From positions 21,266,001-21,330,000 of the forward strand of contig OX597823.1 in assembly GCA_951406725.2 (NCBI GenBank): a stretch of 64,000 nucleotides of DNA. Reading direction: 5' to 3'. The position numbers were made by a program, and so were the translations under genes. The DNA is from Octopus vulgaris (taxonomy: Eukaryota). Within the stretch, counting starts at the first letter, position 1, and each line of letters starts with the position of its first letter. The notes beneath the pieces were generated by a model that saw only the letters and a program-made list of their open reading frames with translations, was not told the DNA's origin and made no database searches. Of this stretch, positions 13,814 through 40,436 are shown in pieces.

Positions 13814-14268
13814 ATTAAAATTATGATTTAGGGTATCTACGAGATACCATCATACTGAAAATACCAACCAAAATCTGACTCTAAAACCACATTAAATGTT
13901 TATACAGCACAAGGAGAGAAGACAAAATTAGAAAATAAACTAGCAAACAATTACTGGATAATTCCAGATCCCGGATTTCTGACTTTGCATTAAAAAATGC
14001 TTTGCCTCTTCAGTGGAATATACGCAGAAAGTAATATATATATATATATATATATATATATATATATATATATATATATATATATATATATATATATATA
14101 TATATTTATATATACATATACATATAACATATAAATACTTACATATACGCACGTATACATACATATGTGTGCACATATGCAACATTTAATGTGGTTTTAG
14201 AGTCAGATTTTGGCTGCTATTTTCAGCATGGCAGTATCCCGTAGACACCCTAAATCATAATTTTAATT
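13814..14268. mobile_element. PLE pseudo-LTR remnant: ~85-bp inverted repeat pair enclosing a hammerhead
   Basis: 13816-13900 (aaaattatgatttagggtatctacg...aaaatctgactctaaaaccacattaaatgtt) is inverted relative to 14181-14266. Confidence 0.7.
13961..14019 (-). ncRNA. Type I hammerhead ribozyme (PLE-associated type)
   Basis: Minus strand: ATTCCA CTGAAGA GGC-aaa-GCATT-tttt-AATGC-aaa-GTC A GAAA TC cgg GA TC TGGAAT. Perfect 6-bp stem I, intact CUGANGA/GAAA core, stem III ATC/GAT, cleavage triplet AUC. Confidence 0.8.
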
Positions 14269-15089
14269 TATATAAATATATATATGTATATATGTATGTA
14301 TATACATAGCTAGCTATATAGGTAGATAAATAGATATATCTATCTATATATATATATATATATATATATATAGCCATATACATATTTTATGTACATATGC
14401 ATATATGTATATATATATATATATATATATATATATATATATATATATATATATATATACATACATACATATATGCATATGTATATGTATATATGTGTGT
14501 ATGTATATATAAATGTAAATATATATGTGTCTGTGTGTGTATGTATGTATATAAACAAAGGAAACGGTGGATTTGTTCATAGCATTTTTCGTTACATCAT
14601 CCTGCAATTCGTTAACAATGAAAAATATCAATTATATACCGAAAATCTAAAAACCGAAAGCATTGTGGAATTCCACAAATTGTTGATTCTAAATTCTTTA
14701 CCATTCACATTGGGGTTCCGACGCTTTTATATTATCGACTACAACACACACACACGCACACACACACACACACACACACACATACACATAAATTCTTAAA
14801 ATTTGACATGAAACCAATATAATGCACAAATTGCGTAACTAAACCTATTCGCTTGGAATTGTTAACTATTCTAATCCTTACAAGTTACACCGTTTTTCAC
14901 GTTATGTTTATTCGCGTTAACATAAACGAATCCTGTTTGAGAAGTAAATATCTTTCTGGAATTTTGCTACTGGAGTGGATTATAAATGTGTGTGTGTGCA
15001 TACTGGCATGTATGTATGTTTGTATGTATGTGTGTATGTATGTATGTGTGTATGTATGTATGTATGTATGTATGTATGTATGTATGTAT

Positions 15090-15347
15090 TGTTTGTTCCT
15101 TCTCGAGACATACCTGGCTCATAAGGGCCGGTTTCCCGGTTTCCTTGGCGTATAGGTTCCCCCCCACCTGGTCCGGCGCAGGTAAGCGCAAGATGCAGGA
15201 GGAAAGAGTGAGAGAAAGTTGTGGCGAAAGAGTCAGCAGAAGTTCGCCATTACCTTCTGCCGGAGCCGCGTTGTGCCCTGTCTGAGATTCGAACCCGCTA
15301 TCCCACGACCTCGTGTCCATTGCTCTAACCACTAGGCCATGTGCCTC
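15090..15347 (-). mobile_element. tRNA-derived SINE (family C2)
   Basis: Head gaggcacatggcctagtggttagagc...gggttcgaatctc (A and B boxes). Tail gggaaaccggcccttatgagcc...gagaagga is shared with 54662-54908. Confidence 0.8.
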
Positions 15348-15459
15348 CACGTATGCATGTATTAGACATGATTATTTCACAGAATCAACAATACGTCGAC
15401 AATAAAAGTGTGCGTGCAGAGGTGTGCTCATATATATATATATATATATACGAGCGGAT

Positions 15460-15600
15460 TCCTGGTTTTAAGGGTGTCGTTAAAGGCCTCGTTGGAGGCC
15501 CAAGCTTCCGAGTTCTTTCACAGGAGTCGAAAAAACTGAAGGACTGCTGCAATAAGTGTGTGAAATTAAGAGAGGAATATATTGAATAAAATATATGGGT
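15460..15600 (+). pseudogene. Tc1/mariner transposase extreme C-terminal fragment
   Basis: ...KLKDCCNKCVKLREEYIE* resembles the mariner C-terminal KL..RW.KCV...G.Y.E motif. Confidence 0.55.
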
Positions 15601-15728
15601 GAAAATACAGACACACACACACACATATATATAAAGGCAAAATTGATTAGGGATCACAAAAGTGACGGAGAGTCCTGACTAGCACCACTTATCTTAGAAA
15701 TGAGAACCCAGGATCGAAATTTCCCCAA

Positions 15729-15774
15729 GACACCTGATGAAGGCTGGAGGGTATATCAGCCGAAACGTTGTGTT
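15729..15774 (+). ncRNA. Minimal type I hammerhead ribozyme (PLE type)
   Basis: GACAC CTGATGA A GGCTG gagggtatat CAGCC GAAA CG TT GTGTT. Stem I GACAC/GTGTT, perfect 5-bp stem II, palindromic ACGT in place of stem III, cleavage triplet GUU. Confidence 0.85.
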
Positions 15775-37505: not shown

Positions 37506-38109
37506 TTATTATTATTATTGTTGTTGTTGTTGTTGCTGTTGTTGTTGTTGTTATTATTATTCTAGGTTGTTGTTGTGATTATTATCATTATTATTATTAT
37601 TATTATTATTATTATTATTATTATTAGTGTGCTGCGAATCGTGTGAGTGATATGGAGAATTATGGCATTAGTTCTTCACTTTGTAGGATGGACCATTAGT
37701 AAAACTCTATTATTGTCAAGTCTATTTGACACTCAAAGAAGTGGAGCTCCTACTTAAAGAAACAGAGAGTACCGGCATTATAGCATGGCCCTCCTTGTTC
37801 TCGAAGCTCAGAGTCACAGAGATGGTGGTAACTTGGTGGACTTCAGAGCGAATACCACTGTAAAGTCCTTACTGAGCTACACATCGTTTCCGTGGTAACA
37901 TTCCGACCGTAGAAACACGTAAAATGTACAGATTGCGACATTACAAGATGATTTAATAGCAACAGAGGTATCGAAGGCCTGAATAAAGTATATGCTTAGT
38001 TTTAAGGAACCATCATAGAATGTTTGCAGAATATAACCGACAACCAACATCATGTAGCCTTAAATTCTCCTTTCTCTTATATTTCTTCGAAACTTGCAAT
38101 CTATTTTCT

Positions 38110-38198
38110 TATGCCCTGATGAAAGGGACATTGCCAGTGTGAAATTGAAGGATTCATGCCTTGCAGACAAATAGACTCCAGAAACGGCCGTCGAAATA
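38110..38198 (+). ncRNA. Decayed type I hammerhead ribozyme with long stem II
   Basis: TATGCC CTGATGA [58 nt] GAAAC GGCC GTC GAAATA. Intact core, palindromic ACGGCCGT stem III, triplet GUC. Stem I pairs 4 of 6 and the stem II base is imperfect. Confidence 0.55.
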
Positions 38199-39704
38199 CA
38201 TTTTATATGGTGCTATAACCCTCTATAAGCATTTCTTTTGAACTCTGAAAACAAACTTATCCTTGTTATTTCTCTGACTCTTAAAATCCATCATTTAGAT
38301 CTCTCACTGCCGTCGATGTATCTTCTAACCTTTAATTCTTTATTTAACATTTTTGATTTAAAAATTAATATGATTTTTTAAAATCTATGCATCACACTTT
38401 ATTTATTTATCCTTTTCACGTACATTTTTACCTAATGTCTTTCTTATTTCTATTCTAAATGTTGTATTGATATGTTTCTCATCTTGGTGTATTTATTGAC
38501 TTGATGTATATCATAATTATAAGATGATTATCTAAATTTTGTCTCTTCTTTAAACAAGTTATATAAAATATATATATATATCTGTATATATGTATATATA
38601 TGTATATATATATATATATATATATATATATATATATGTGTGTGTGTGTGTGTGTGTGTGTGTGTGTGTGTGTGTATGTGTATATGTATGTATACATACA
38701 TATATACTTATACATATATGTATATTTATATATATATTCTTTAGATGCACACACACGCATACAAACACACAAAAACACACACACATATTGTACATTTTAA
38801 CACACAGAAAACACAAACACACCCACATATATACTGACATGATTATATGATTATATGAATATGTATGCGTACGTGTATGTATGTATGCATGTATGTATGT
38901 ATGTGTGTGCGTATGTGTGTGTATGTGTGTGTGTGTATATATTTATACGCACACACATCGCGGAAAGAAATAATGAAATTACACTTGTTTAGTTAGAGAG
39001 CTAAATGCTTCAATAGTCGGCTACACTGGTGTTATAGTCATGGTAATACCATCAACAAATTCCCTCCAGACTTCCCTTTGTTTTCCGACTTTGTTTTGTC
39101 ACTATTTATGTATGCATATAACGTCCTGTAATGCACAGCAAAAGCACTGCTCACATCGACGGAAGTCTGACTGTATTTTTTCCCCATTTTTTTTTCCAAA
39201 TCACTAAAACAGTTTTCCCATGAGATAACCGCATTTTAGAGACAGGCCTAAACGAGTCTTTTTTTTTTCCTGTTTCTGATGGGCCACAAATACAATTTTC
39301 GGGCGATAGGTGCCAAACGTCTCAACGAATATTTTGAAAAGAAAGCAAAAGGATATAACTTCATTGCAAGCAAACAAATCCACACACACACACACACATA
39401 CACACACATTCATAGATATATATATATATATGTATATATATATATATATATATATATATATATACACATACATATATACATATATATACATACATATATA
39501 TATATATATATATATATATATATATATATACATATACATATACATATATACATCATTTGAAGACTAAAACAAAGCGAAGCGCATTGTGACCAGCGATATG
39601 TGGCAACATCTGATAGCCTGGTCGGTCACGTGATCACATATATACATACACACACACACACACACACACACACACACACGTATATATATACATATATATA
39701 CATG

Positions 39705-40155
39705 TACTGACCTGCCATCAGCGTGACAATCACCGGTTGGCGAGGGGAAGTTAATCTCAGTGCAAATATATATACTTTTCCCAGTGACGAAATGTCACTT
39801 GGGCCCGTGTGTATCACGCCAGGCTGGTGATAGGAACGATGAGTTCCCTTTGCAATTACTGACAGGGCACAGAGAGTGTGTCAATAGCCAGTTCGAGGAA
39901 TTGTGTGCCTGAGGCTACAAGATACAGTAGCATATATATATATATATATTTGCATTGAGATTCATTACCCATCGCCGATCGGCATTTGTCACACGGTGAT
40001 GACGGGTCAATAACCAGAAACTTGAGTCCGTGTGTATCACGTTAGGCTGAAGAAGGGAACGATGACTTCCCTTTACAAATACTTATAAGGTACAGATAGT
40101 GTGCCAATAGCCAGCTGGAGGAATTGTCTTCATGAGACTACAAGCTACAGTAGAA
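39705..40155. mobile_element. PLE pseudo-LTR-like composite: inverted segment plus direct repeat
   Basis: 39708-39776 is inverted relative to 39942-40010, and 39797-39932 is a direct repeat of 40020-40154. Confidence 0.8.
39990..40034 (+). ncRNA. Type I hammerhead ribozyme with C3>G substitution
   Basis: CACACG gTGATGA C GG gtcaataa CC A GAAA C ttga G TC CGTGTG. Perfect 6-bp stem I and GUC triplet; the inverted sister copy at ~39715-39728 retains CTGATG. Confidence 0.65.
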
Positions 40156-40349
40156 TCGACATACTTCATATATATATATATATATATATATATATATAAT
40201 CCAAAGACGAATACAGTGTACGTTCAAACACAAAAGAGGTACCCGAAAAATAGGATATCTGACTCGCTAGAAAGAGCAGTTAAAACTCCAAGCCACCAAT
40301 TGTTGTAATTCCGAAAGTGATTGGAAAATAAAAACTTTTACCTTATTAT

Positions 40350-40436
40350 CCTAGACCCTGCAAGGTTTCTGCAGACTTAAATACAGATTGAAATAAAATA
40401 TTTTCAGTCTATATCTGGCGCTGCTTCTTCAGTAGG
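40350..40436 (-). ncRNA. Type I hammerhead ribozyme
   Basis: Minus strand: CCTA CTGAAGA A GCAG [~45 nt] CTGC A GAAA CCT tgca GGG TC TAGG. All three stems pair, loop III is the palindrome TGCA, triplet GUC. Confidence 0.8.

Follow-up and report, generated by a model that had tools for sequence, protein, structure and literature searches.

Six type-I hammerhead motifs in a 64-kb stretch of the Octopus vulgaris genome and their probable origin in Penelope-like and retrozyme-like repeat families

How does a short stretch of animal DNA come to hold six different hammerhead motifs, and what are they copies of? The question is raised by 64,000 nucleotides (nt) of Octopus vulgaris DNA (assembly GCA_951406725.2, contig OX597823.1, positions 21,266,001 to 21,330,000 of the forward strand; this whole stretch is called the window below), in 27 kb of which a first-pass annotation had pointed out six putative type-I hammerhead ribozymes. 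All six stretches are present at the positions and on the strands given there, and are numbered H1 to H6 in order along the window (Table 1). Very probably they are type-I hammerheads lying in 5'-truncated copies of six repeat families, two of them the ends of Penelope-like elements (H2 and H4) and four of them units without an open reading frame (ORF; H1, H3, H5 and H6), whose source ribozymes likely cut.

The descriptor used required the strict core and a Watson-Crick stem I of at least 4 base pairs (bp), and tolerated a slip of at most 2 bases where stem II joins the core; it was loosened only after the motifs had been seen. It finds four matches in the window (H1, H2, H3 and H6), while two sets of 60 local dinucleotide shuffles, the control proposed at first pass, give means of 0.033 and 0.017, so that the density of matches is not reproduced by shuffling. 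With slip disallowed the window holds no match; that is, none of its motifs passes the filter of Perreault et al. for a canonical 10.1-11.1 pair beside the core. The core C3 U4 G5 A6 N7 G8 A9 / G12 A13 A14 A15.1 / U16.1 H17 is found in all six family majorities and in five of the window copies; the CUGANGA ascribed to all six therefore fails in H5, which reads GUGAUGA (C3G). Likewise the complementary stem I claimed throughout is there in all but H4, in which it is reduced to one pair, a 2x2 loop and three pairs. Because of these two defects, four of the six window motifs are whole; the family majorities restore both (C3 in 28 of 30 H5 copies, a 6-bp stem I in H4) and have all three stems with an open stem I, of which the window H4 fails stem I. 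The unusual junctions were described correctly, no motif having a G10.1-C11.1 pair that abuts both core strands: an A stands directly before GAAA in H1, H4, H5 and H6, an additional A follows the core in H2, and H3 has a U.U mismatch. Of the four self-complementary stems III, those of H2, H3 and H4 are exact palindromes, while that of H6 contains a G.U.

Each of the six motifs is one copy of a dispersed repeat family. Searches of the octopus's own genome, in which 40 candidates per motif were scored and 30 loci kept, the first being the window copy, began from 3188, 2747, 1036, 88, 2630 and 1216 first-look candidates for H1 to H6 respectively, which are not copy numbers. Mean divergence from the family majority is 3-12% (1.1% for the window copy of H6), and CpG sites are changed at 8-19% in all families, as for decaying insertions. 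In all six, homology ends at a fixed point 3' of the motif (about +135 in H2, +214 in H5, +243 in H6, +245 in H3, +310 in H1 and +450 in H4), with variable 5' ends, and an inverted piece lies upstream in 12, 21, 10, 8, 10 and 7 of 30 loci for H1 to H6. Inverted upstream copies have been described for Penelope-like insertions (Craig et al., 2021, PMC8557442), and the fixed 3' end, 5' truncation and inverted copy that characterize such insertions are seen in every one of the six families. A (TA)n tract forms the 3' end in 22 of 30 loci for H1, 15 for H3, 8 for H4, 11 for H5 and 12 for H6, and in none of 30 for H2; in the window, one such tract forms the end of both the H5 and the H6 insertions. 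The families are not quite as unrelated as had been supposed, since the H3 and H6 units have a 95-nt segment in common outside the ribozyme (score 56 against a shuffle mean of 29.5, reached by 0 of 100 shuffles). In H1, whose cut falls at +53, upstream direct repeats begin at +56, and in H5, with its cut at +39, they begin at +47 (loci L043, L136, L074 and others); one H3 upstream repeat begins before the cut, and the numbers are too few to tie the template 5' end to cleavage.

For two of the families a coding parent is at hand. The H2 motif lies downstream of the end of a GIY-YIG ORF, on the same strand, in 20 of 30 loci, and the frame at locus L198, read by motifs, comprises a reverse transcriptase followed by a C-terminal GIY-YIG with two internal cysteines and no linker zinc finger, by which the H2 carrier is assigned as a putative Penelope/Poseidon-type element with its hammerhead in the 3' repeat. 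Pfam gave nothing beyond a weak GIY-YIG match on the element ORFs and no match for the L198 frame. R4-like elements, which lack long terminal repeats (non-LTR), stand upstream of H2 in 2 of 30 loci; they were judged neighbours rather than parents because H2 follows a GIY-YIG ORF in 20. In L211, which is the same locus as L094, the H4 motif follows 463 nt after an endonuclease that has a CxCX5C linker, and five of 30 loci of such endonucleases contain sequence of the H4 family. A related 806-amino acid (aa) frame, 59% identical over the endonuclease, has DKT, CxCX5C, CxxC and CxH; the N-terminal RWK motif is not seen in it, but the frame has no start and looks 5'-truncated. The Hydra clade is defined by DKT, the CxCX5C linker, the lack of CCHH and a (TA)n target (PMC8557442), and on these motifs H4 is assigned to the 3' end of a Hydra-clade element. 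Neptune and Naiad were considered for the H4-linked ORF and ruled out by its linker, which is of the Hydra form and not CX2-5CxxC plus CCHH; the Naiad clade, moreover, has an N-terminal endonuclease. Five short family motifs were not found in the supplement text of Craig et al., whose line breaks could conceal matches. The uninterrupted 806-aa frame lies in L492 and L222 (C5:50453912-50460199) with its own hammerhead, closed by an A-U pair; to judge from close copies in L223-L226, the family may be young. For one element protein there is a 46% identical relative named from Octopus bimaculoides.

The other four families consist of tandem units. H1, H3, H5 and H6 run upstream into their own 3' ends in 9, 9, 7 and 4 of 30 loci, with unit lengths of about 495, 555, 357 and 490 nt, a G+C content of 32-42% and a longest ATG frame of 21-69 aa. 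Consecutive units are seen for H6 (a head-to-tail trimer of period 488 in L493, both whole units carrying a stem III mismatch) and for H1 (a dimer of period 495 in L040); H3 and H5 show partial tandems only. All four are thus non-coding units of <45% G+C with one type-I hammerhead, as non-LTR retrozymes are, and their circular folding (z -2.2 to -6.9, 30 shuffles each) is compatible with a self-paired circular RNA. An H1 piece adjoins the Hydra ORF in L226, but on the opposite strand, and was rejected as a link to a parent; the alignment of H1 with a Hydra 3' end scores above shuffles, but both are TA-rich. In the third H6 unit of L493 (1698-1780) the middle of the ribozyme is replaced by short tandem repeats of the cut-site segment, perhaps through template jumping where cleavage would occur.

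Table 1. Hammerhead motifs, their carriers and other features of the window (positions are those of the 64,000-nt stretch)
Feature	Position	Strand	Remarks
H1 hammerhead motif	13961..14019	-	6-bp stem I; G-C base of stem II, lone A before GAAA; stem III insert TCCGGGA; predicted cut 3' of 13967
H1 unit, 5'-truncated	13715..14032	-	full unit ~495 nt, no ORF; ends in (TA)n; ends approximate
Inverted partial copy upstream of H1 unit	14181..14267	+	
H2 minimal hammerhead	15729..15774	+	descriptor match 15730-15773; extra A after A9, G10.1-C11.1; stem III just ACGU; cut triplet GUU; predicted cut 3' of 15769
3' end stump of putative Penelope/Poseidon-type element bearing H2	15690..15865	+	
H3 hammerhead motif	30383..30453	+	U.U at stem II base; palindromic stem III; predicted cut 3' of 30448
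H3 unit copy	30176..30642	+	full unit ~555 nt, no ORF; CA/TA microsatellite end; 3' end approximate
H4 hammerhead motif	38110..38198	+	A.A junction; palindromic stem III; stem I broken in window copy
3' untranslated end of putative Hydra-clade Penelope-like element bearing H4	38037..38580	+	
H5 hammerhead motif	39990..40034	+	C.A junction; C3G in window copy, predicted inactive
H5 insertion	39704..40160	+	full unit ~357 nt; ends in (TA)n; inverted piece 39705-39774; direct partial repeat ~39797-39933; main copy 39937-40160
H6 hammerhead motif	40350..40436	-	A.A junction; long stem II; 5-bp stem III with UGCA loop; best-preserved window copy; predicted cut 3' of 40354
H6 unit, 5'-truncated	40173..40513	-	full unit 488-493 nt, no ORF
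Decayed reverse transcriptase	~17300..18280	-	motifs ADK, DVTSLYTNI, FLDDC across frames
Mos1-type transposase helix-turn-helix fragment	35334..35645	+	PF17906, E 3e-8
3' end of non-LTR element	52614..53066	-	in trinucleotide repeats
Short tandem arrays	6071-7416, 26465-27013, 33015-33384, 48480-48656		periods 55-213 nt

Over a wider sample, 240 loci (781 kb) hold 121 motifs in 20 families, against 0, 0, 0, 1 and 0 in five shuffles; 28 of the 121, in 14 families, lay outside the six searched for. This bears out the earlier proposal that the genome is seeded with hammerhead motifs by several Penelope-like or retrozyme-like families. Seven of the 20 families need no slip at the junction, eight have one base on each side, three on the 3' side only, one on the 5' side only (H2), and one is otherwise arranged; 11 have an exactly palindromic stem III insert. 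In 20 arbitrary stretches of 10 kb there were four plausible passes and one that looks like chance, together with some 11 recognisable insertions, decayed ones included; from these four in a sample of just 200 kb, the 2.80-Gb genome is estimated to hold about 56,000 descriptor-passing motifs (95% range 15,000-143,000). Motif density in the window is typical of the genome, and a local cluster of the six is rejected (conditional tests, P 0.10-0.21). In metagenome data one of 119 pattern loci (43 of 64 parts scanned) is a clean A.A motif with a palindromic stem III (L374, 61% G+C), scoring 23.1 bits against Hammerhead_1, below 34; the motif lies at the centre of a long GC-rich hairpin (L374:241-390). 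Among 112 pattern loci in viral contigs one passed loosely, with a 3-bp stem I, and was not accepted as real.

The cores have been kept better than their surroundings. Intact cores number 24, 24, 21, 11, 25 and 29 of 30 copies for H1 to H6, and stem I cells are paired in 89-99% across copies. Once five truncated H4 rows had been removed (as for the stem-change counts), 34 rare changes were observed at non-CpG core positions against 66 expected from the 3' flank by base, and shared variants occur in 1 of 65 core columns, in 104 of 831 elsewhere and in three of six at N7; at H17, 178 of 180 cells have A, C or U. The cores thus vary half as much as the flanks, consistent with selection in source copies, as the first-pass annotation had argued for the progenitors. 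In the H4 family (L091-L120) U stands at core position 3 with G8 unchanged in 8 of 30 copies, the only shared core variant seen. In H3, C11.1 is found in four of the five copies with G10.1 and in none of the 25 others, a paired swap from U.U to G-C that counts as one event because these copies are probably one subfamily. The A before GAAA is kept in 119 of 120 cells, which alone is not significant (P 0.19).

Most of the unusual junctions are already in print. The minimal-hammerhead consensus of metazoan Penelope-like elements has an extra base after A9 and a palindromic stem III (Cervera and de la Pena, 2014, PMC4209133), and H2 is like it (Fig. S3 there) in the extra base, the G10.1-C11.1 pair and the 2-nt palindrome, and like those elements in its single and inverted copies 3' of a GIY-YIG ORF; in the other five stem III is longer and, for the most part, the 3' side has an unpaired base as well. 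One of 56 core cells in that figure reads AGAAA, in a row that is not assignable. In File S2 of PMC8557442, which includes an octopus Hydra element, a 1x1 mismatch at the base of stem II is found in 15 of 25 Hydra-clade families (14 U.U and one U.C), like that of H3, and the Chara element PLE-X1_cBra has a C after A9 and an A before GAAA, as does H5; (TA)n targeting and a stem III of 3-4 bp are further likenesses. A.A (H4, H6) and G-C plus a lone 3' A (H1) are absent from the File S2 table, and stem II, often 40-60 nt here, is unlike that of its motifs; the table terms them all canonical, and the section of the paper covered here leaves the junction undiscussed. A natural U10.1-U11.1 motif was reported by Perreault et al. 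(PMC3088659), who discarded matches mismatched there unless activity had been measured, and U.U also lies at the base of helix II in the axolotl Amex2 motif, whose cleavage is better in the dimer (Cervera and de la Pena, 2020, PMC7229834). With U.U, C.A and the extra base after A9 published, and A.A in the metagenome contig, the lineage-specific variant suggested earlier is not supported. H1, H3, H5 and H6 are like the non-LTR retrozymes of PMC7229834 in being ORF-less and of low G+C, with one type-I hammerhead, head-to-tail arrays and many monomers; those units that measure 490-555 nt exceed the 170-400 nt of those retrozymes, while falling in the range (51-972 bp) given by Li, Clavereau and Pollet (2026, bioRxiv 10.64898/2026.07.22.740005), who argue that retrozymes are non-autonomous Penelope-like derivatives. 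The octopus units, known here from DNA alone, differ in being mostly dispersed truncated monomers with inverted 5' pieces. No cephalopod appears in the parts covered of these two retrozyme papers; no paper on A.A junctions or octopus retrozymes surfaced, a weak negative that leaves aside figures, preprint supplements and Lunse et al. (2017).

The history that would best account for these features begins with transcription of source arrays. The ribozyme would likely cut these tandem transcripts at a slow rate and, where stem III is short, would most likely do so in dimers paired by that self-complementary stem (self-duplex -1.7 to -18.9 kcal/mol); H1 and H6 might fold and act as monomers too. 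A reverse transcriptase with endonuclease, for H1, H3, H5 and H6 likely a Hydra-like enzyme acting in trans, would begin synthesis 135-450 nt downstream of the motif, at a fixed site, run through an uncut or re-ligated cut site and terminate prematurely, often with the addition of an inverted piece; the copies would then decay. The template should be uncut or circular, because the copies run through the cut site. Internal initiation has been reported, as has the loss of cleavage with C3G (PMC11167929). Among the window copies H6 would be the best candidate for residual activity and H1 the next; H2 and H3 are predicted to be without a dimer partner, and H4 and H5 to be weak or dead.

Several observations weigh against this account. 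Rfam gives no match in the window at its gathering score, and a scan of 39940-40480 with E up to 10 finds no hammerhead (the best 150 of 422 matches in an E-value scan are nearly all microRNA models on microsatellites). Within families, stem changes on both sides are few (four cells over all stems counted), and the 30 copies of each family are those most similar to the copy in the window and are not independent; because they are related and picked by likeness to it, the P values are optimistic. The hammerhead is not the lowest-energy monomer fold, costing 1.0 (H6), 2.9 (H1) and 7.6 (H3) kcal/mol in the window copies, and no ORF-bearing parent for H1, H3, H5 or H6 is found among the upstream frames listed. 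In published systems, minimal motifs act as dimers and have low activity even so (PMC4209133), one of nine frog retrozyme dimers was active and eight inactive (bioRxiv 10.64898/2026.07.22.740005), and the ribozyme is unneeded for insertion in vitro (PMC11167929).

The last point leads to the most serious alternative, which we nevertheless consider unlikely: that motifs with a purine-rich junction (A.A, C.A, lone A) have lost the ability to cut and are retained as a structure that serves the element enzyme for protein binding or for priming. Catalytic mutants left insertion unchanged, a lizard element showed no RNA ends at the cut site (PMC11167929), every copy here reads through that site, and Perreault et al. 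excluded 10.1-11.1 mismatches without measured activity (PMC3088659). The positions that are conserved, however, are those of the catalytic core, while N7 varies freely, H17 keeps to A, C or U, and natural U.U motifs do cut (PMC3088659, PMC7229834).

It is less probable still that the host has retained the window copies to cut a transcript spanning the region. Four of them still pass the descriptor, and H6 is close to its family majority, but H4 and H5 are damaged, the motifs lie on both strands as solo copies lacking a dimer partner, CpG decay is seen in every family, and the density equals that of arbitrary stretches; no host gene or exon was recognised in the window, where short exons would have escaped. 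Chance matches in AT-rich repeats have next to no likelihood, in spite of the silence of Rfam and the late loosening of the descriptor: both controls refute them (in the window 4 against 0.02-0.03; in the loci 121 against at most one), and the descriptor does not require the exact palindromes found in 11 of the 20 families. Copies of hammerhead-bearing mobile elements, with source ribozymes that likely cut, remain the preferred explanation.

The window also contains other debris (Table 1). Pfam is silent on the decayed reverse transcriptase, which we take from its look to be Penelope-like, its clade being our assumption; no hammerhead was found behind it. The 3' end of a non-LTR element, seen also in L013, L019 and L198, adjoins H2-family sequence in several loci; it is presumably R4/Dong-like, with the look of a restriction-like endonuclease element. 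Several of the short tandem arrays are built of one abundant repeat, which we take to be SINE-like (short interspersed element).

To the known pattern these results add one more genome, in which there are at least 20 Penelope-like families bearing hammerheads, along with four retrozyme-like units. The observation falls in a known class. The natural series G-C, U.U, C.A, A.A and lone A offers an easy test of the importance of the 10.1-11.1 pair, since it includes a swap between G-C and U.U within one family. Searches that require this pair undercount, since 12 of the 20 families are recovered only when slip is allowed there. On general grounds of RNA structure, A.A or C.A might stack on the sheared A9.G12 pair. 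More tentatively, and with rather more doubt than confidence, we propose thousands of copies of ORF-less, (TA)n-targeted retrozymes driven by Hydra-clade enzymes, with an active purine-rich junction variant (A.A, C.A, lone A) under selection in several independent families; if so, there would be an active core variant missed by standard descriptors and Rfam, one that probably extends the sheared G.A stack next to the general base G12.

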